Assembly (NCBI GenBank): GCA_903928055.1
Contig: CAIYPG010000076.1
Span: 87-64,086 of the forward strand
From: an uncultured beta proteobacterium
Lineage (GTDB): Bacteria > Pseudomonadota > Gammaproteobacteria > Burkholderiales > SG8-39
Length of the DNA stretch: 64,000 bases
Direction of reading: 5' to 3'
In this document: piece after piece, positions 15,969-53,295 of the stretch
How the letters are laid out: every line of letters begins with the position of its first letter
Numbering within the stretch: the stretch's first letter is position 1
Program-made: the position numbers and the translations under genes
The notes under the pieces: generated by a model
Database searches by the model: none
What the model was told of the DNA's origin: nothing
The model's input: only the letters and a program-made list of their open reading frames with translations

Positions 15969-16001
15969 GCGCAATCGCCCCGCGGCAACGGGCGATTGCG
16001 C
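15969..16001. terminator. 12-bp stem hairpin between convergent genes
   Basis: GCGCAATCGCCC-N9-GGGCGATTGCGC. Confidence 0.65.
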
Positions 16002-30433: not shown

Positions 30434-30509
30434 GCCCCCGTAGCTCAGTGGATAGAGCACCTTCCTCCTAAGAAGGGGGTCACACGTTCGATTCGTGTCG
30501 GGGGCGCCA
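30434..30509 (+). tRNA. tRNA-Arg(CCT)
   Basis: Acceptor GCCCCCG/CGGGGGC; D arm GCTC/GAGC; anticodon stem CCTTC/GAAGG with loop CTCCTAA; T loop TTCGATT; encoded CCA; 76 nt. Confidence 0.97.
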
Positions 30510-30729
30510 AAGATTGAACGACTCAGTTGTCAATTCAATGTGAGATGCCGCCTCCGGTACATTCCGGGGCACCTCATTTTTGTTTCAAATAGTGGCACAA
30601 TCCAGAACCGCATCCCATCAAAATGGGCCGGCGCCCCCGGCCCCAGCCGTACAATAAAAACAGCGCTCACGAGTGCCCGGGGCCAACTTTTGGCGCCAGG
30701 CGCACCGGAAACCTCAGGAGGAGCATCGA

Positions 30730-31272
30730 ATGGCAATGATTCTGGTCTACGACCCTACCGCACCTCTGGGCGAAGAAGGCATCCGCCAAGCCAGCCACGC
30801 GCTGAAAAGTCTGACAGGCAAGGTGGTCGGTTTCATCGACAACTCCAAGCCCAATTTCAGCAATCTCATCGATGTCATTTCGCAGAGTCTGATCGAGCGC
30901 TACGGCGTGAAGTCGGTGATCACGCGCCGCAAACCCATGGCCTCGGTGCCGGCCACCGCCTCCGACATGAAAGACCTGGTCGAGCAGTGCGACCTGGTGA
31001 TCACCGGATCGGGTGACTGAGGCTCATGCACGTCGTGGAGTGTCCACGACGCCATTGAAGTGCAAAAGCGCCAGCGCCAGACGCTGACCATCGCCACCAC
31101 CGCGTTCCAGGTGCTGGCCCGCACCCAGGCCAAGGCCCTCGGCCAGCCCGAGCTGCCGGTGGCCATCATTCCCCATCCGCTGGGCCCGCTTTCGCTCAAG
31201 GAACTGCATGACATCGTGGACAGGCAACTGGATGCCATGGTGAAGCTGGTCTGCGAGGGCAACATTAAATGA
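30730..31272 (+). CDS. UGSC-family selenoprotein (Sec at in-frame TGA 31018-31020, residue 97; 180 aa)
   Basis: ORFs 30673..31020 and 31060..31272 share a frame; read-through gives GSGD-U-GSCTSWS; SECIS-like hairpin follows; stop overlaps the next start (ATGA). Confidence 0.85.
31024..31058 (+). promoter_or_regulatory. Putative bacterial SECIS element 1
   Basis: CGTCGTGGA-GTG-TCCACGACG perfect 9-bp stem starting 11 nt after UGA, plus a lower TCATG/CATTGA stem. Confidence 0.78.
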
Positions 31273-32336: not shown

Positions 32337-32357
32337 ATGCATCAACAAGGAGAAAGC

Positions 32358-33335
32358 ATGAGCAAGTTCAAGCTGGCGGCCATTGCGGGCACCCTGTGCG
32401 CAGCGAGCATGGCGTGTGCCCTGGCGCACGCCCAGGATGCCTATCCCGGCAAGCCGATCAAGCTGATCGTGCCCTATGCCGCAGGCGGACCTACCGACAT
32501 TGTGGCGCGCACGGTAGGCATGAAACTCACCGAGCGCATCGGCCAGCAACTGGTGATCGACAACCGCGGCGGCGCCAACGGCATCATTGGCATGGAGTTG
32601 GCTGCCAAGGCGCCGGCGGACGGCTACAACCTGGTCATGGGCGGCGCTGGCGTGCTGGGCAGCAACCCGGCCTTCTACTCCAAGCTGCCGTACGACGCGG
32701 TGAAGGACTTCGCGCCCATCAGTCTGCTGACGCAAGCGCCACTGCTGCTGGTGGTGAATCCTTCGCTGGGCGTAAAGACCTTTCCCGAATTCATCAAGCT
32801 GGCCAAGGCCAGGCCCGGCGAGCTGAGCTTCGGCTCAGGCGGCACCGGCGGTGTGGCGCACCTGGCAGGCGAACTGCTCAACTACATGGGCGGCGTGAAA
32901 ACCGTACACGTGCCCTACAAGGGCGCCGCCCCGGCCATGTCCGATCTGCTGGGCGGACAGATCGCCTTCACCTTCACCAGCACTGTGGCTGCGATTCCCA
33001 ACGTCAAGAGTGGCAAGCTGATCGGACTGGGCGTGACCTGGGCCAAGCGCGCGCCCGCCTTGCCGGATGTTCCCTCGATCGCGGACACCTATCCCGGCTA
33101 TGAAGTGCGCGTGTGGTACGGGTTTCTCGCGCCGTCGAAGACGCCGCGCGCCATGGTGGACAAACTGAACCGCGAGCTGGACATCGTGGTGCGTAATCCG
33201 GAAGTGGTGCAGCGCTTCATCGCTGACGGCGGCGAGGCGGTGGGCGGCTCGCCTGAAGTGTTCTCCAAAGTGATTGCCCAGGAGATCGCCATCTGGACCA
33301 AGCTGGCCAGGGACACCGGACTGAAGCTCGAATAA
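32358..33335 (+). CDS. TctC/Bug substrate-binding protein
   Basis: YPGKPIKLIVPYAAGGPTDIVAR, NRGGANG, HVPYKG. Confidence 0.92.
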   Translation: MSKFKLAAIAGTLCAASMACALAHAQDAYPGKPIKLIVPYAAGGPTDIVARTVGMKLTERIGQQLVIDNRGGANGIIGMELAAKAPADGYNLVMGGAGVLGSNPAFYSKLPYDAVKDFAPISLLTQAPLLLVVNPSLGVKTFPEFIKLAKARPGELSFGSGGTGGVAHLAGELLNYMGGVKTVHVPYKGAAPAMSDLLGGQIAFTFTSTVAAIPNVKSGKLIGLGVTWAKRAPALPDVPSIADTYPGYEVRVWYGFLAPSKTPRAMVDKLNRELDIVVRNPEVVQRFIADGGEAVGGSPEVFSKVIAQEIAIWTKLARDTGLKLE

Positions 33336-33374
33336 GCGGAAAGACTTCCTCGCAAGATCACAATGAGGGGCATC

Positions 33375-34355
33375 ATGTTCAAACCGGCAGCCATACTCGG
33401 CATACTTGGAATTGCTTGCGCGTTTGCAAGCGGCAACGGCATCGCGCAAAGCGATGCCTATCCCGGCAAACCGATCCGGCTCATCGTGCCCTACGTGGCC
33501 GGCGGGCCAACAGACATCGTCGCCCGTACGGTGGGCGCCAAGCTCACCGAGCGCATCGGCCAGCAACTGCTGGTCGACAACCGCGGCGGCGCCAATGGCA
33601 TCATCGGCATGGAGATGGCCGCCAAGGCCCCGGCCGACGGCTACAACCTGCTGCTGGGTGGTGCCGGCGTGCTGGGCACCAATCCCGCCTTCTATGCCAA
33701 GCTGCCCTATGACGCAGTCAAGGATTTCGCGCCCATCAGCCTGCTCACCTCTGCACCGCTGCTGCTGACGGTGCATCCCTCCCTCGGCGTGAAGACCTTC
33801 CCTGAGTTCATCAAGCTAGCCAGGTCAAAGCCTGGCGAGCTGAGCTTCGGTTCGGGGGGGACCGGCAGCGTGCCGCACCTGGCCGGAGAGCTGCTTGGCT
33901 ACATGGCCGGAGCGAAGTTCCTGCACACGCCCTACAAGGGGGCCGCCCCCGCAATGAATGATTTGCTCGGCGGTCAGATCTCCTTTCTCTTCATCAGTAC
34001 GGTGGCCGCCTTGCCCAACGTCAAGGCCGGCAAGCTGGTCGGCCTCGCGGTGACCTGGTCCAAGCGCGCCCAGACACTTCCAGACATACCCTCCATCTCG
34101 GAGACCTTCCCGGGCTACGAAGCGCGCGTATGGTATGGCATCCTCGCCCCGGCGAAGACACCGCGGCCCATTGTCGACAAGCTCAATCGCGAGCTCAACC
34201 AGGTGATCCAGAATCCCGAAGTCGTGCAGCGTTTCGCCATCGACGGCGGCGAGCCGGTTGGCGGCCCGCCCGAGGCGTTCGCCAGGACCATCGCACAGGA
34301 GATCGCCATCTGGACCCGGTTGGCGAAAGATACCGGGCTGAAACTTGAAGAATAA
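33375..34355 (+). CDS. TctC/Bug substrate-binding protein (tandem paralog)
   Basis: Near-identical to the preceding gene over long stretches. Confidence 0.92.
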   Translation: MFKPAAILGILGIACAFASGNGIAQSDAYPGKPIRLIVPYVAGGPTDIVARTVGAKLTERIGQQLLVDNRGGANGIIGMEMAAKAPADGYNLLLGGAGVLGTNPAFYAKLPYDAVKDFAPISLLTSAPLLLTVHPSLGVKTFPEFIKLARSKPGELSFGSGGTGSVPHLAGELLGYMAGAKFLHTPYKGAAPAMNDLLGGQISFLFISTVAALPNVKAGKLVGLAVTWSKRAQTLPDIPSISETFPGYEARVWYGILAPAKTPRPIVDKLNRELNQVIQNPEVVQRFAIDGGEPVGGPPEAFARTIAQEIAIWTRLAKDTGLKLEE

Positions 34356-34365
34356 GGGCACCGAA

Positions 34366-36144
34366 ATGAGCACCCCCAAAAAAACGGCAGGCAGCAAAGT
34401 CACCCTCGCACCTCCGGCGAAGACAGCCGAAAGCGACGGCCACTACCGTGTCTACTGGCCGCGCACACGGCGGCGTGTGTCCCTTAAGCCGCTGGCCAAG
34501 CGTCCGCAGAACCTTGCTGACAAGAAGATCGCCTTCCTCTGGGATTATGTGTTCCGCGGTGACGAAATCTTCGGGATTCTCGGCAAAGCGCTGCAGGATC
34601 GTTACCCCGGCATGAGCTTCGTCAACTGGGCCGAGTTCGGCAATACCCACGGCAGTGACGAACACCAGGTGGTGGCTTCGCTGCCGGGACGACTGAAGGA
34701 GTTGAAGGTCGACGCCGTCATCTCCGGGATGGGTTGTTGAGGAAGTTGCACGCCCGCCGTGTTGCGGGCGAGTGCGATGTGCGAAGAGGCCGGGATTCCG
34801 GCCTCCACGCTGTGCTGCGAGGGGTTCGTCGGCCTGGCCAAGGCCACGTCCATCGGCCTGGGCATGCCCACCATCCCGCTGGCCATGGTGCCCGGGCACA
34901 CCAACGTGCAGTCCGCGCTGGAACTCAGGAGCAACGTGCTCGAGACCACGCTGGCCCAGGTGATTTCCAATCTCACCACTCCCCCGGAAATCGCCAGTTT
35001 CGATGAAGAGCCAGACGAAGGCGCCGTCGTCTTCGAGGGAAACTTCGATGCAGTCAACGACTATTTCGTCGGCCAGGAGTGGAGCGACGGCCTGCCCATC
35101 GTGCCGCCTACGCGCGGCAAGATAGAACAATTCCTCGCCTTCACCGACCTCCCCCCTGAAACCGTGCTGGGCATCATGCTGCCGGACAGCCGCGCCGCCA
35201 CGGTGTGGAGCGTGGCCGTCAACGGCGTAATGGCGGGCTGCAAACCGGAATACATGCCATTGCTGGTGGCGCTGGCCGAGGCCATGGCCGATCCCTATTA
35301 CGGCGTCGAGCACAGCGGGAACACGCCCGGCGGCGAGACACTCATCATCGTCAATGGTCCCATCGTCAAGGACCTGGGCCTCAACTACACCCAGGGCGTG
35401 ATGCGCGATGGCTTCCTGCCCAACACCTCCATCGGCCGCTTCTGGCGCCTGTACCTGCGCAACGTCGCAGGCTTCCTGCTGCACAAGAATGACAAGGCCA
35501 CCTATGGCAACACCTGGCGCGTGGTGATCGCCGAGAACGAGGACACGCTGGCCAGGATAGGCTGGAACAGCATCGCCATGGACATGGGGCACAAGCGCGG
35601 GGCGAACACCGTCACCATCTCGCGCCACACTGGCGGCAACCTCAGTGTTTCGCTGTCGGGTGACGTGCGCCGCGACATGCTCCCCTACCTCGCAGACTCG
35701 GTGCTGCGGCAAACCAACTGGCAGCTCATGTTCACCGTCGGTCAGGGCATGGGCACCCTGCGCCCGCAGGTGCTGATTACGCCCATCCTGGCCGAGACCT
35801 TCCACAAGGCCGGACTGAGCAAGCAGGACCTCAAGCAATTCCTGTTCGACCATGCGCGCCTGCCTGCATGGCAGTTCGAACGCATTCTGCGCGACTGGAC
35901 ACTCAAGCCCACCTGGGACCTGGCACAGGAAGTGCGCGTCGGCACCATCCCCAGGGTGTTCGCAGAATCGGATGATCCCAACCGCATGGTTCCGATCGTG
36001 TGGGAGGCCGACGATTACATGATCGCCGTCACCGGCGACCCCATGCGCAACAGTGCCTATGTGTTTGCACACAACGGCATCCTGGGTTATCCCGTGACCC
36101 ACGGGATACGCCTGCCGAAAAACTGGAAAACTCCTAAAAGCTGA
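34366..36144 (+). CDS. Fused UGSC selenoprotein plus partner domain (Sec at TGA 34738-34740, residue 125; 592 aa)
   Basis: ORFs 34345..34740 and 34759..36144 share a frame; read-through gives VDAVISGMGC-U-GSCTPAV; SECIS-like hairpin follows; C-terminal WSDGLPIVPPT, VNGVMAGC, IVNGPI. Confidence 0.85.
34746..34777 (+). promoter_or_regulatory. Putative bacterial SECIS element 2
   Basis: TTGCAC-GCCCGC-CGTGTT-GCGGGC-GA-GTGCGA; loop G at +19 from UGA. Confidence 0.75.
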
Positions 36145-36222: not shown

Positions 36223-36236
36223 TTGATTTGCATCAA
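36223..36236. promoter_or_regulatory. FNR/Anr/Dnr-type box
   Basis: Perfect TTGAT-TTGC-ATCAA about 120 nt upstream of rquA. Confidence 0.82.
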
Positions 36237-36353
36237 CCCGCGGGCGGCGCCCAAGTGCAGACTCATCTTGAATATGGTGGAAAATCCACAAGAAATCCAC
36301 GGATTACAGATGTACCAGCGGATCACGCACCCGATCACCAAGAAAAACACACC

Positions 36354-37058
36354 ATGAAATTGCAATCCGGGTCCCTCACGCCCGCCCTCACCAAGATTCC
36401 CCTCTATTTGTCGGAAACCTACTGGTGGGCCTATGTGCATCCCCGCGCGATCCACCTGTTCGAGCGACAGTGGATGGTCAACCTGATCCTGTGGGGAAAT
36501 TTCGGCCCGTTGCGCGATGGCGCGCTGGAGGCCTTGGGCCTCGACCGTCAGGGAAGCACGCTGCAGGTGGCATGTGTCTATGGCGACCTTACCGCGCAGT
36601 TGCTCAAACGTTCGGTATCAGGCTCGCGGCTTGACGTGATCGATGTCCTGCCCCTGCAACTGGACAACCTTGCACGCAAGCTGCCGCCGGACCCGGCGGC
36701 CAATCTCATCCTGTGCGACAGCACCGCGATGTCATTCGAATCGGGAAGCTACGATCGCGCACTGCTGTTCTTCCTGTTGCACGAGCAGCCCGAAGAAGTC
36801 CGCAGGGCGACGATTGCGCAGACGCTGCGGGTGGTCAGACCGGGCGGACGGATTGTGATTGTCGACTATCACCGGCCACGCGCATTCAATCCGCTGTACC
36901 TGCCCATGGCTGGCGTGCTGCACACCCTTGAGCCTTATGCACATGATCTGTGGCGGCATGAAATAACAGAGTGGTTCCCCAAGGACCTGAAAGTCGCGGA
37001 GGTTCGCAAAACGACATCGTTCGGCGGGCTGTATCAGATGCTGGTCATTACGGTCTAG
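36354..37058 (+). CDS. rquA: Rhodoquinone biosynthesis protein RquA (methyltransferase-like)
   Basis: YWWAYVHP..FERQWMVNLILWGN, LQVACVYG in place of the usual SAM motif I, FFLLHEQP. Confidence 0.88.
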   Translation: MKLQSGSLTPALTKIPLYLSETYWWAYVHPRAIHLFERQWMVNLILWGNFGPLRDGALEALGLDRQGSTLQVACVYGDLTAQLLKRSVSGSRLDVIDVLPLQLDNLARKLPPDPAANLILCDSTAMSFESGSYDRALLFFLLHEQPEEVRRATIAQTLRVVRPGGRIVIVDYHRPRAFNPLYLPMAGVLHTLEPYAHDLWRHEITEWFPKDLKVAEVRKTTSFGGLYQMLVITV

Positions 37059-37106
37059 GAACGCCGCAATGGATTGCATTCCTCACCAACCGGGAAGTTG
37101 ACGCAA

Positions 37107-38876
37107 ATGCAGGTCATACAAGCCGATGTCGTGATAGTGGGCGGGGGTGGTGCCGGACTGCGTGCCGCAATCGCCGCCGCAGAGCGTGATCCGTCGCTGC
37201 GCATCGCGCTGGTCTCCAAGGTGGTCCCGATGCGCAGCCACACCGTTGCCGCCGAAGGCGGCGCAGCCGGCGTGGTGCGCGGTGACGACTCGCTTGAAAA
37301 TCATTTCGACGACACGGTCTCGGGCGGTGACTGGCTGTGCGAGCAGGATGTCGTGGACTATTTTGTTGCGCATTGCACCGATGAACTCGTTCAGCTCGAG
37401 CGATGGGGCTGTCCCTGGAGCCGCAAGGAGGACGGGCATATCAACGTTCGCTTTTTCGGCGGCATGAAGGTGCAGCGAACATGGTTCGCTGCAGACAAGA
37501 GCGGCTTTCACATCCTGCACACCCTGTTCCAGACCTCACTGCGATTACCGTCGATCAGTCGCTACGACGAATTCTTTTGCGCCGACCTGATGGTTGAGGA
37601 TGGCAAGGTTCGCGGCGTGCTGGCAATTGAAATCACGACCGGTGAATTCTTCCTGTTCGAAGCACCGGCCGTGGTGATGGCCACCGGCGGCGCAGGCCGC
37701 ATCTACCGGCAGAACACCAATGCCGGCATCGTGACCGGTGAAGGCATGGGCATGGCCTACCGGCACGGTGTTGCCCTGCGCGACATGGAATTCATGCAGT
37801 GGCATCCGACCGCTCTCCCCGGAACTGGCATCCTGATCACCGAGGGCTGCCGCGGAGAAGGCGGCATCCTCGTCAACAAGGATGGTTACCGTTACCTGCA
37901 GGATTACGGCCTCGGCCCGCTCGATCCCTGGCCGCGGCCGAAGGCCATGGAACTGGGGCCGCGCGACCGCTTGTCGCAAGCCTTCTGGCATGAACAGCAG
38001 AAGGGACGCACGATCGATACGCCGAAGGGCCAGGTCGTGCATCTCGATCTGCGCCATCTCGGCCGGAAGAAGATCCTTGAGCGACTGCCCTTGATCACGG
38101 AAGTGGCGAAGACCTTCATGGGTGTTGACCCGGTGGTCTCCCCCATTCCGGTTTGTCCGGCAGTCCATTACACGATGGGCGGCATCCAGACCAACGTGCG
38201 CTGCGAGACATCCCTGTCTGGTCTGTACGCCGCTGGCGAGTGTTCCAGCGTCGGCATCCATGGCGCCAATCGCCTCGGTTCAAATTCACTGGTGGAGATC
38301 ATCGTTTTCGGTCGGGTAGCCGGCGACTCCGCCGCGCAGCACGCGAGGACGGTGACGGCATCCCATGGCGACTCGATTCGCCGGCAGGCGGAAGCCTCCG
38401 CGCAGCACCTGTTATCACTGCTCGGGCAGGAGACCGGCGAGCGCGTGGCCACACTGCGCGACGCCATGCGTGACAGCATGGAGAGCGGCGTGGGCATCTA
38501 CCGCAAACAGGACGCCATGCAGGCCACCTGCGAAACGCTGGCGGAATTGCGTACCCGCTACCGGGGCGGGGTCAGGCTTGATGATCGCAACCGCGCATTC
38601 AACACCGAATGGCTGACCGCCATCGAACTCGGCTACATGCTCGAAGTGGCCGAAGCGCTGGCGCATTCCGCGCTGCAACGCAGGGAATCGCGTGGCGCGC
38701 ACTTCCGGCTGGACGGCTACGAGGAGCGGGATGACGAGCGCTTCCTCGCGCACTCGATCGCACATTTCCGTGGTGACGGCCCGCCGCTGATCGACTACGC
38801 GCCGGTCACCATCACCCGATCAGCGCCACGGACGCGTACCTACGGCGGCGCCGGCAAGAAGGCGGAGATGACCTGA
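37107..38876 (+). CDS. frdA: Fumarate reductase flavoprotein subunit
   Basis: GGGGAG, RSHTVAAEGG (covalent-FAD His), WFAADKSGFH, ELGPRD, HYTMGG, HGANRLGSNSL. Confidence 0.92.
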   Translation: MQVIQADVVIVGGGGAGLRAAIAAAERDPSLRIALVSKVVPMRSHTVAAEGGAAGVVRGDDSLENHFDDTVSGGDWLCEQDVVDYFVAHCTDELVQLERWGCPWSRKEDGHINVRFFGGMKVQRTWFAADKSGFHILHTLFQTSLRLPSISRYDEFFCADLMVEDGKVRGVLAIEITTGEFFLFEAPAVVMATGGAGRIYRQNTNAGIVTGEGMGMAYRHGVALRDMEFMQWHPTALPGTGILITEGCRGEGGILVNKDGYRYLQDYGLGPLDPWPRPKAMELGPRDRLSQAFWHEQQKGRTIDTPKGQVVHLDLRHLGRKKILERLPLITEVAKTFMGVDPVVSPIPVCPAVHYTMGGIQTNVRCETSLSGLYAAGECSSVGIHGANRLGSNSLVEIIVFGRVAGDSAAQHARTVTASHGDSIRRQAEASAQHLLSLLGQETGERVATLRDAMRDSMESGVGIYRKQDAMQATCETLAELRTRYRGGVRLDDRNRAFNTEWLTAIELGYMLEVAEALAHSALQRRESRGAHFRLDGYEERDDERFLAHSIAHFRGDGPPLIDYAPVTITRSAPRTRTYGGAGKKAEMT

Positions 38877-39625
38877 TGACGACGACCAGAATCATTGAAA
38901 TCGAATGCCAGCGCTTCAACCCGCAGACGGATTCCGAGCCACATTTCCAGAGCTATCAGGTGCCGTTCAGCGAAGAAATGTCGGTCCTGCAGGGACTGCA
39001 GTACATCAAGGATCATCTGGATGGCAGCCTCACCTTCCGCTGGTCCTGCCGTATGGCGATCTGCGGCAGCTGCGGCAGCATGGTGAACGGCGTGCCGCAG
39101 TTGTCCTGCCATACCTTCCTGCGCGATTACTTTCCGGACAAGGTGCGGATCGAACCGCTCAACCATTTTCCGGTCTTGCGCGACCTGGCCATCGACCAGA
39201 CGGATTTCCTCGCCAAGCTGGAATCGGTCAAGCCCTACCTGATTCCGGACACAGAGAAAACACCGGCGCAGGGCACCTATCTTCAAACGCCGCAGCAGAT
39301 GGACGAGTATTACCAGTATTCCGAATGCATCAACTGCCTGCTGTGCTACGCCGCCTGCCCGCAGTACGGGCTCAACAAGGAATTCACCGGTCCGGCAGCC
39401 CTTGCACTGCTGCACCGTTACAACGCCGACTCGCGCGATGCCGGCTCGGCCGAACGCATGGAAGTCATCAATGGCGAGAACGGTGTCTGGGGCTGCACCC
39501 TGGTCAGCTACTGCTCCGAGGTCTGCCCCAAGGGCGTTGACCCTGCACGCGCCATAAACCAGAACAAGATCAACAGCACCAAGGATTATTTCCTGCGCTT
39601 CCTGCAGCCACGGGGAGGGAAATGA
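38876..39625 (+). CDS. frdB: Fumarate reductase Fe-S subunit
   Basis: RWSCRMAICGSC, CINCLLCYAAC, CTLVSYCSEVCPKGVDP. Confidence 0.92.
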   Translation: MTTTRIIEIECQRFNPQTDSEPHFQSYQVPFSEEMSVLQGLQYIKDHLDGSLTFRWSCRMAICGSCGSMVNGVPQLSCHTFLRDYFPDKVRIEPLNHFPVLRDLAIDQTDFLAKLESVKPYLIPDTEKTPAQGTYLQTPQQMDEYYQYSECINCLLCYAACPQYGLNKEFTGPAALALLHRYNADSRDAGSAERMEVINGENGVWGCTLVSYCSEVCPKGVDPARAINQNKINSTKDYFLRFLQPRGGK

Positions 39626-52590: not shown

Positions 52591-53295
52591 ATGATTCCAT
52601 GGCTACGTCAAGACCTGACCTTTCCGCCCCTTGCGACAGCGCTGGTTGAGCCCAGCGGGTTGCTGGCGGCGGGCGGTGACTTGTCTCCCGGCCGACTCCT
52701 TGCCGCCTACCGGCTGGGCATATTCCCATGGTATTCGGAAGGAGACCCCATCCTCTGGTGGAGCCCGGACCCGCGCATGGTGCTATTCCCATCAGAGTTC
52801 AGGATCAACCGCTCCCTGGCTAAGACGCTCAGGAATCGCCACTACGCCATTTATTTCGACACCGCCTTTGAAGCAGTCATGGAGGCCTGCGCAGCCCCTC
52901 GATCCAGCCAGCCCGGAACCTGGATTTCCACCGAAATGAAGGCGGCCTACTGCCGCCTTCATGAACTGGGCCATGCCCATTCAGTCGAGACCTGGATCGA
53001 CGGAACACTTGCCGGCGGCCTGTATGGCGTCGCCCTAGGGCGAGCGTTCTTTGGAGAATCGATGTTTTCACGGGAACGGGATGCCTCCAAGGTCGCTCTC
53101 GCCGCGCTGGTTTCGCACCTTGACCGCGAAGGCTTTGGCATCATCGACTGTCAGATGCATACCAGCCATCTGGAATCCCTTGGCGCACGCCCCATCCCGA
53201 GGACGGCCTTTTCCAGGCTGCTCGGAGAATTGGTAGACTATCCACGGGATCTTGGCAGGTGGACTACTGCTTCATTCAGCCATTCACCGACTTAA
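52591..53295 (+). CDS. aat: Leucyl/phenylalanyl-tRNA-protein transferase
   Basis: [36 protein letters not shown]. Confidence 0.95.

Follow-up and report, generated by a model that had tools for sequence, protein, structure and literature searches.

A predicted UGSC-family selenoprotein gene with an in-frame UGA codon and a SECIS-like hairpin, in a genome holding many of its paralogues

In the window, by which we mean the whole stretch of 64,000 nucleotides from contig CAIYPG010000076.1 that was analysed, two open reading frames (ORFs), 30673..31020 and 31060..31272, were found to lie in a single common frame. When positions 30730-31269 were translated with TGA read as selenocysteine (Sec, U), a protein of 180 residues was obtained, in which the sole internal stop is the TGA at codon 97, with LVITGSGD-U-GSC-TSWSVHD around it. 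A sequence-only reading of the window made earlier had joined the two ORFs into one hidden selenoprotein gene with D-U-G-S-C, a UxxC motif, at TGA 31018-31020 and an ATGA overlap with the next gene, and both the frame and these features were found as it described them. The start site is backed by two orthologues, G001 and G008, which have an equivalent start, M..LVYDPTAP. As argued below, positions 30730-31272 on the forward strand very probably make up one gene for a selenoprotein of the UGSC family. The features of the locus and its surroundings are listed in Table 1.

Table 1. Coordinates of the UGSC locus and surrounding features within the window
Feature	Position	Strand	Basis or remark
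UGSC-family selenoprotein gene (predicted), stand-alone (split) form	30730..31272	+	180 codons plus stop; TGA=U translation
Shine-Dalgarno AGGAGG	30716..30721	+	Read in the sequence, 8 nt ahead of the ATG
In-frame UGA, predicted Sec97 of U-G-S-C	31018..31020	+	TGA=U reading, paralogues, orthologues, homologue column
Cys100 codon TGC, presumed resolving cysteine of UxxC	31027..31029	+	TGA=U translation
Predicted SECIS hairpin	31031..31051	+	5' arm 31031-31039, loop GUG 31040-31042, 3' arm 31043-31051
Partner gene, 355 aa	31269..32336	+	Homology to the C-terminal domain of fused paralogues
ATGA overlap, UGSC stop and partner start	31269..31272	+	TGA 31270-31272 overlaps ATG 31269-31271
TctC/Bug-family periplasmic solute receptor gene	32337..33335	+	Pfam PF03401, 214.2 bits
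Second TctC/Bug-family receptor gene	33363..34355	+	Pfam PF03401, 218.6 bits
Second UGSC selenoprotein (predicted), fused, 592 codons	34366..36144	+	In-frame TGA 34738-34740, class-B hairpin
tRNA-Arg (anticodon CCT)	30434..30509	+	220 nt upstream of the UGSC gene

The translated protein matched the Pfam family UGSC (PF24696) with 145.7 bits against a gathering cut-off of 25, and the match ran across the TGA, aligning residues 6-174 to profile positions 2-170 of 172. U-G-S-C was found at its conserved position in the family, after the ...G-x-G-D strand. A word-indexed protein search listed 120 relatives. In 111 of them the protein has fewer than 140 residues and in every case ends in ...GSGD, right before the TGA, which bears out the description of the gene as hidden from gene calling. 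The nine full-length relatives among the 120 listed all have C-G-S-C in place of U-G-S-C. When 1.84 billion representatives were searched exhaustively with HMMER, 1149 matched at E <= 0.001, and the best 150 of these were examined: 137 of them span the codon-97 column, where Cys stands in 133 and Ser in the other 4, and C stands in the Cys100 column in 124 of the 137 (123 CC plus 1 SC). The sequence-only reading had named two outcomes that would speak against it, homologues without Cys or Sec at the aligned position and similarity ending at the TGA, and neither was found. Cys-type UGSC genes were also seen in haloarchaea, some of them on plasmids, and in Methanobacterium (loci L103, L104, L106, L110, L112, L114, L143 and L161), showing that the family in its Cys form reaches well beyond bacteria. 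A sequence search of the PDB with the UGSC protein at E up to 1 found no relative, a Pfam scan of 13 family members at E up to 10 returned only UGSC and chance matches, with no thioredoxin-like family among them, and a protein atlas search with a natural Cys homologue gave no usable match after UGSC clusters were excluded.

The host genome (3.76 Mb in 167 contigs, 92.5% complete) holds the genes for Sec synthesis and insertion. The tRNA-Sec gene selC scored 80.6 bits against a gathering score of 47 and was called by ARAGORN as tRNA-SeC with anticodon TCA, and selB (444 bits), selA (579 bits) and selD (432 bits) were all above curated cut-offs; selC, selB and selA adjoin one another on contig C164. 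The in-frame TGA is kept in 23 of 25 paralogues, in 150 of the 150 matches listed in relatives and in both orthologues. TGA serves as the stop of 10 of the 17 Pfam-supported genes of the window, more than any other stop codon, and a reassigned genetic code is therefore ruled out. A sequencing error at TGA 31018 is likewise ruled out, since contigs from two metagenome runs agree and paralogues and orthologues share the TGA; the contigs of these two runs, one of which is possibly the source sample, cover the TGA with no other letter. The stretch itself occurs in five runs from two studies, of lake-water and freshwater metagenomes, and no RNA run is listed among the public runs that contain it.

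Downstream of the TGA, a hairpin with arms CGTCGTGGA and TCCACGACG was found to form a perfect 9-bp stem, which, counted from the A of the TGA, starts at +11 and carries the loop G at +20; stem, GUG loop and distances had all been given by the sequence-only reading and were confirmed. The core conserved in the two orthologues and the paralogues is an 8-bp stem (31032-31050) after an 11-nt spacer, and the present gene alone has the ninth pair, 31031:31051. The hairpin alone folds at -14.6 kcal/mol and is the centroid structure, and a 39-nt stretch reaches -15.9 kcal/mol (z = -2.34; of 200 shuffles, 5 were as stable). The forward strand of the window holds only 10 distinct perfect hairpins with a stem of >=9 bp and a loop of 3-9 nt, which puts the chance of such a hairpin lying 16-37 nt behind a given codon at roughly 0.3%, so that chance placement behind an in-frame TGA is unlikely.

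The model of the bacterial selenocysteine insertion sequence (SECIS), termed bSECIS, describes an apical loop of 3-9 nt on a stem of 4-16 bp, a G within the first two nucleotides of the loop, as a rule with G or U after it, 16-37 nt from the UGA to the loop, and a minimum free energy (MFE) of <= -7.5 kcal/mol (PMC13188914). The hairpin agrees with all four points, having a 3-nt GUG loop, a 9-bp stem, a distance of 19 nt and an energy of -14.6 to -15.9 kcal/mol. It also fits the description of Itoh et al. 2015, with a stem of 6-8 bp and a conserved G about 20 nt past the UGA (PMC4605307). An Rfam search found the upstream tRNA only and left the hairpin unmatched. Further perfect hairpins of 9-12 bp on the forward strand lie at 15969-16001, 36088-36108 and 52936-52962, and the one at 36088-36108 falls within the 3' end of the second UGSC gene, a fusion.

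Two sequence classes of the hairpin were distinguished in the genome. The class-A motif, that of the present gene, occurs 13 times on both strands of the 3.76 Mb, in every case with a TGA exactly 11 nt upstream and within a UGSC gene. With an identity of only 29-49% to this protein, the 13 class-A paralogues still have the same codons through the stem, ACG/TCG-TCG-TGG/TGC-AGT in all 13; the loop G-U comes from AGT, a minor codon that makes up 69 of the 665 Ser codons in these ORFs. The class-B motif, GCCCGC-CGUGNU-GCGGGC, occurs 7 times, all 7 with a TGA 11 nt upstream, and encodes the peptide TPAVLRA, compared with TSWSVHD in class A. In its 6-bp stem, four of the six stem positions shared with class A are changed on both sides with pairing kept. 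The second UGSC gene has a class-B hairpin, GCCCGC-CGUGUU-GCGGGC with an extra C:G pair, 11 nt from its UGA; this gene is probably the 'hidden selenoprotein 2' of the sequence-only reading.

Conservation of the hairpin was also seen between genomes. The closest orthologues, G001 and G008 (77% and 72% DNA identity), keep the TGA and the 8-bp stem, with variation only in the third loop base, and related genomes showed short matches of 93-100% at query positions 289-330, with the rest of the gene 65-72% identical. A covariance model built from 16 sequences was searched in 41 related genomes and matched 17 of them, namely 16 with UGSC and one with a weak match; the other 24 gave none. Covariation was then measured on 44 distinct rows of the resulting alignment against 500 shuffles. 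In these rows 97.4% of cells were paired, compared with 90.6 +/- 0.8% in shuffles and 52% at most in slid controls, and the covariation score was 0.146 versus 0.035; none of the 500 shuffles reached the observed values. Four of the eight stem pairs were changed on both sides, among them pair 21:27, which is G-C in 32 rows and C-G in 11. In metagenomes, many contigs align only between about 31011 and 31050-31060, a segment covering the UGA and the hairpin, and diverge on both sides, and in each of the four runs compared the summed contig depth rises from about 2-6 to 50-161 in the bin 31012-31035 and is 38-126 in 31036-31059.

The sharpest test of hairpin function is a control with Cys-type genes. 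We collected 80 loci encoding D-C-G-[SG]-C-T-S-W with a Cys codon, one genome per species, from Sphingomonadales, haloarchaea, Actinomycetota, Methanobacterium and others, and compared them with 43 distinct gap-free rows of the UGA type (one of the 44 was dropped for a gap). At least six contiguous pairs counted from the loop were present in 11 of the 80 Cys-type loci and in 38 of the 43 UGA-type rows. The mean folding energy of nt 13-36 was -6.7 kcal/mol in the Cys type and -12.4 kcal/mol in the UGA type, at a segment G+C of 0.64 and 0.60, respectively. A loop codon NGT, which gives the loop G-U, was found in 2/80 Cys-type and 43/43 UGA-type sequences, and the codon at the loop Ser position was AGC in 39 and AGT in none of the former and AGT in 38 of the latter. 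By this comparison, the full stem with its GU loop is maintained only where the codon is UGA. Both covariation and loss in Cys forms thus point to selection on the hairpin, subject to the kinship of the rows and the fit of the alignment to the model. Together, the family match across the TGA, the Cys homologues, the Sec machinery, the agreement with the bSECIS model and the covariation support the selenoprotein reading; they indicate that the UGA at 31018 very probably codes for Sec and is not a stop, and strongly support the hairpin behind it as a candidate SelB-type SECIS by analogy with known bacterial elements.

Several observations weigh against this reading and have to be set beside three other explanations of the locus. 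The support is at the level of sequence, and a stop at the TGA is what gene callers agree on, 111 of the 120 relatives listed ending there and TGA being the commonest stop of the window. The gene would then be broken or encode a natural 96-residue protein, with the downstream part untranslated and the hairpin incidental. We consider this highly improbable, since the distal 84 codons match the UGSC profile through position 170/172 and are conserved as an open frame in two orthologues with 72-77% DNA identity, the Cys-type homologues are continuous proteins, and the retention of the TGA in 23/25 paralogues and 150/150 matches listed is unlike a decaying pseudogene. The match to the NCBIfam equivalog NF041046 (113.1 bits, E 1.1e-32, with residues 30-173 aligned to profile positions 2-145 of 147) lies under its curated 125-bit cut-off despite clear homology, and the gene is therefore filed under the Pfam family and not under that equivalog. 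If the UGA is read through, the residue could in principle be Trp, Cys or Arg, brought by a near-cognate or suppressor tRNA with the hairpin as a general stimulator. Stem-loops downstream of stop codons can indeed stimulate read-through in other systems, and the computed data do not distinguish the inserted residue chemically. Against such non-Sec read-through, which we judge to have very little probability, stand the complete selABCD set, Cys at the first position of the UxxC/CxxC motif in 133/137 homologues, a loop GU and spacing that match the SelB-type SECIS model, the restriction of the GU to UGA forms (43/43 versus 2/80) and the listing of UGSC as a selenoprotein family in the literature.

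A further explanation takes Sec insertion, if any, to be driven otherwise and the hairpin to be a by-product of the peptide T-S-W-S-V-H-D with no function at the RNA level. Here the whole-segment MFE was only modestly low against synonymous recodings (z = -0.87), a weakly discriminating measure in place of which stem-specific and comparative tests were used. The mean longest stem in synonymous recodings is about 5 bp and 2-5% of them reach the observed length, and 6 of 18 Cys-type genes encoding TSWS[VILM]HD, the same heptapeptide, keep the full contiguous stem; the peptide thus predisposes to pairing, in agreement with the recodings. Moreover, the Cys-type taxa are distant and more GC-rich, so that the AGT/AGC contrast may be partly compositional, and the covariation alignment was fitted to the model, with rows that are relatives of one another. 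A mere by-product is nevertheless very unlikely: the class B peptide T-P-A-V-L-R-A differs and yet comes with a 6-bp hairpin at the same 11-nt distance, 4/6 shared stem positions being changed on both sides between the classes; synonymous codons, the minor AGT included, do not drift among the 13 class-A paralogues; most of the Cys forms have a broken stem (11/80 versus 38/43) and have lost the loop GU; and many metagenome contigs match 31011-31060 only and diverge on either side. Sec decoding with the hairpin as its SECIS is the reading we retain.

The partner gene that follows, of 355 aa, gave no Pfam or NCBIfam match, and a sequence search of the PDB at E up to 1 brought none either; at least 7977 database relatives were found at E <= 1e-5 among 8000 candidates scored. 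Its protein atlas matches were unnamed clusters plus one automatically named 'thioredoxin family', which serves as a lead only. The ATGA junction and the separate partner gene are also present in G001 and G008, and the overlap probably reflects translational coupling, by which the partner would be made. The genome has 25 UGSC profile matches, 23 of them with one in-frame TGA. In 22 of the 25, UGSC is fused in frame to a domain of about 370 aa homologous to the partner, and in the remaining 3, the present gene included, the partner is a separate adjoining gene. All 25 UGSC loci accordingly have the partner fused or adjacent, and 25 of 26 partner-like loci adjoin or join UGSC; the split arrangement was also found in a distant complete genome (L058). 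Residues invariant in a 29-row alignment of the partner include D36, G37, P43, T44, R154, N162, E188 and W195.

Some of these copies depart from the common pattern. In two fused paralogues, C101:7697-9391 and C42:12286-13983, G or A stands in place of the U and G or T in place of the C. With both Sec and Cys gone, these copies retain the partner domain and a neighbouring TctC gene, and may be non-redox derivatives. In the split copy C71:16054-18012, a partner-like gene lies upstream of UGSC, the reverse of the usual order, and the hairpin shows a compensatory GGA/UCC -> GCA/UGC change. One UGSC-partner fusion gene, on C164:4570-11644, lies about 2 kb from the selC-selB-selA cluster.

A TctC gene was found within 3 kb of all 25 UGSC loci, compared with a mean of 10.3 and a maximum of 18 of 25 in 2000 random placements. 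The genome has 339 TctC/Bug-like loci and about four genes for the TctA membrane component, an extreme 'orphan Bug' expansion. When the neighbours at UGSC loci were clustered, TctC was the only one to recur in addition to the partner. Flavoprotein, LysR and amidohydrolase-like neighbours stand at 2-5 UGSC loci each, and a universal dedicated reductase beside UGSC is unsupported in this genome, candidate neighbours being present at 2-5 loci only. Right after the second UGSC gene, on the forward strand at 36228-39625, lie an S-adenosylmethionine (SAM)-methyltransferase-like gene and genes for a succinate dehydrogenase (SDH)/fumarate reductase-type flavoprotein (600 aa) and an Fe-S subunit (249 aa), which might be redox partners of the UGSC module or unrelated to it. 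Between 30400 and 39800, a promoter scan gave no sigma-70-like site, and sites resembling terminators were no commoner there than in shuffles. The reverse strand of the tRNA-Arg gave a sub-threshold Rfam match to a plastid leader, which we take as chance.

UGSC matches were present in all 10 genomes of the genus that were searched, with 1-41 in each, and in only 3 of 300 genomes sampled across the phylum, with 1-2 copies each. A full-text literature search found no report of such a UGSC expansion, a result that does not by itself show that none exists. Peng et al. 2016 give 26 and 33 for UGSC, read here as organisms and genes, in more than 5200 genomes, and take selenoprotein-rich to mean >=6 selenoprotein genes, a state found mostly in anaerobes (PMC5029168). 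In the surveys, selenoprotein-rich bacteria are mainly anaerobic Thermodesulfobacteriota, Clostridia and Synergistota, and the known maxima are 57 and 63 selenoprotein genes.

By analogy with E. coli and Moorella, SelB carrying Sec-tRNA(Sec) would bind the GU loop while the ribosome stands on the UGA at 31018, and this complex would out-compete release factor 2, so that Sec is inserted. The ribosome would then run on to the TGA at 31270 and re-initiate on the overlapping ATG to give the 355-aa partner. In the protein, Sec97 and Cys100 would form a redox-active selenol/thiol pair cycling through a selenenylsulfide. With moderate confidence, on the grounds of the UxxC motif and the UGSC-partner fusions, we take UGSC to be the redox subunit and the partner the substrate-handling half of a two-part enzyme; the redox or reductase role is reached by inference alone, and the Cys in the NAVMAGC motif of the partner varies in the 29-row alignment, two points that count against it. 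More tentatively, and with the balance somewhat on the other side, the enzyme could reduce an organic acid that the TctC/Bug receptors encoded next to it bring in. A broader proposal, which we hold to be rather doubtful, is that the UGSC-partner pairs make up a large family of selenium-dependent reductases with diversified substrates, in which every copy has its own TctC/Bug receptor and which one freshwater genus, apparently of Burkholderiales, has multiplied 20- to 40-fold. If it were true, these lake bacteria, ordinary as they seem, would be among the most selenoprotein-rich bacteria known, by expansion of a single family, and much of the 'orphan Bug receptor' expansion would be tied to selenium-dependent catabolism.

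For annotation, these results mean that the gene and its 22 Sec-bearing paralogues are split or shortened by standard gene callers. UGSC is among the most abundant selenoprotein families of aquatic metagenomes, and the genome pairs it strictly one to one with the partner domain; the natural split form is suited to separate expression of the UGSC and partner halves, and the invariant link to TctC receptors means that receptor ligands could reveal substrates. The single-family expansion itself, with 23 Sec genes here and up to 41 matches in a congener, is notable.

The Sec subunit of glycine and proline reductases works with a separate subunit that activates the substrate, and thiol reductants supply it. 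The UGSC-partner pair resembles glycine reductase GrdB and D-proline reductase PrdB in this proposed logic alone, and we do not count it among them; Table 2 of PMC2398784 gives a UxxC Sec motif for PrdB, and the Pfam scan at E up to 10 gave no sequence relation to GrdB or PrdB. As in the fdhF-type SECIS of E. coli, the hairpin lies in the coding region directly behind the UGA, with a small apical loop opening G-U and the loop G about 20 nt past the UGA, and its 11-nt spacer is presumably also the spacing in fdhF. It differs by its perfect stem of 8-9 bp, its 3-nt loop, the absence of a bulged U and a sequence unlike that of fdhF.

The sequence-only reading was made with no knowledge of the UGSC family, which has long been described; its call is correct, but genes of this kind are already catalogued. 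Zhang & Gladyshev 2007 named the 'UGSC-containing protein' as a selenoprotein whose function was unknown (PMC1976440), and the ocean survey of Zhang & Gladyshev 2008 lists it as one of the most abundant families (255 Sec forms, 21 Cys forms), reports it as commoner in non-marine than in marine water and suggests for it a thioredoxin-like fold with the redox motif at a helix N-terminus (PMC2398784). A 2026 review counts UGSC (NF041046) among families with largely uncharacterized functions (PMC13188914). The present gene shares with the published family the profile, the U-G-S-C motif, the cutting of the gene at the TGA by gene callers and the freshwater occurrence, the runs that contain this DNA being lake and freshwater metagenomes. 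It differs in that this copy stands under the NF041046 cut-off (113.1 versus 125) and in the number of copies, with 23 Sec copies in this genome and 41 profile matches in a congener. A fusion of UGSC with a domain called 'Unknown_1' was noted by Zhang & Gladyshev 2008 (PMC2398784), and the partner domain is presumably this 'Unknown_1' of Fig. S1A in that paper. Different from the published fusion, the two halves are here encoded by separate genes joined by the ATGA overlap.

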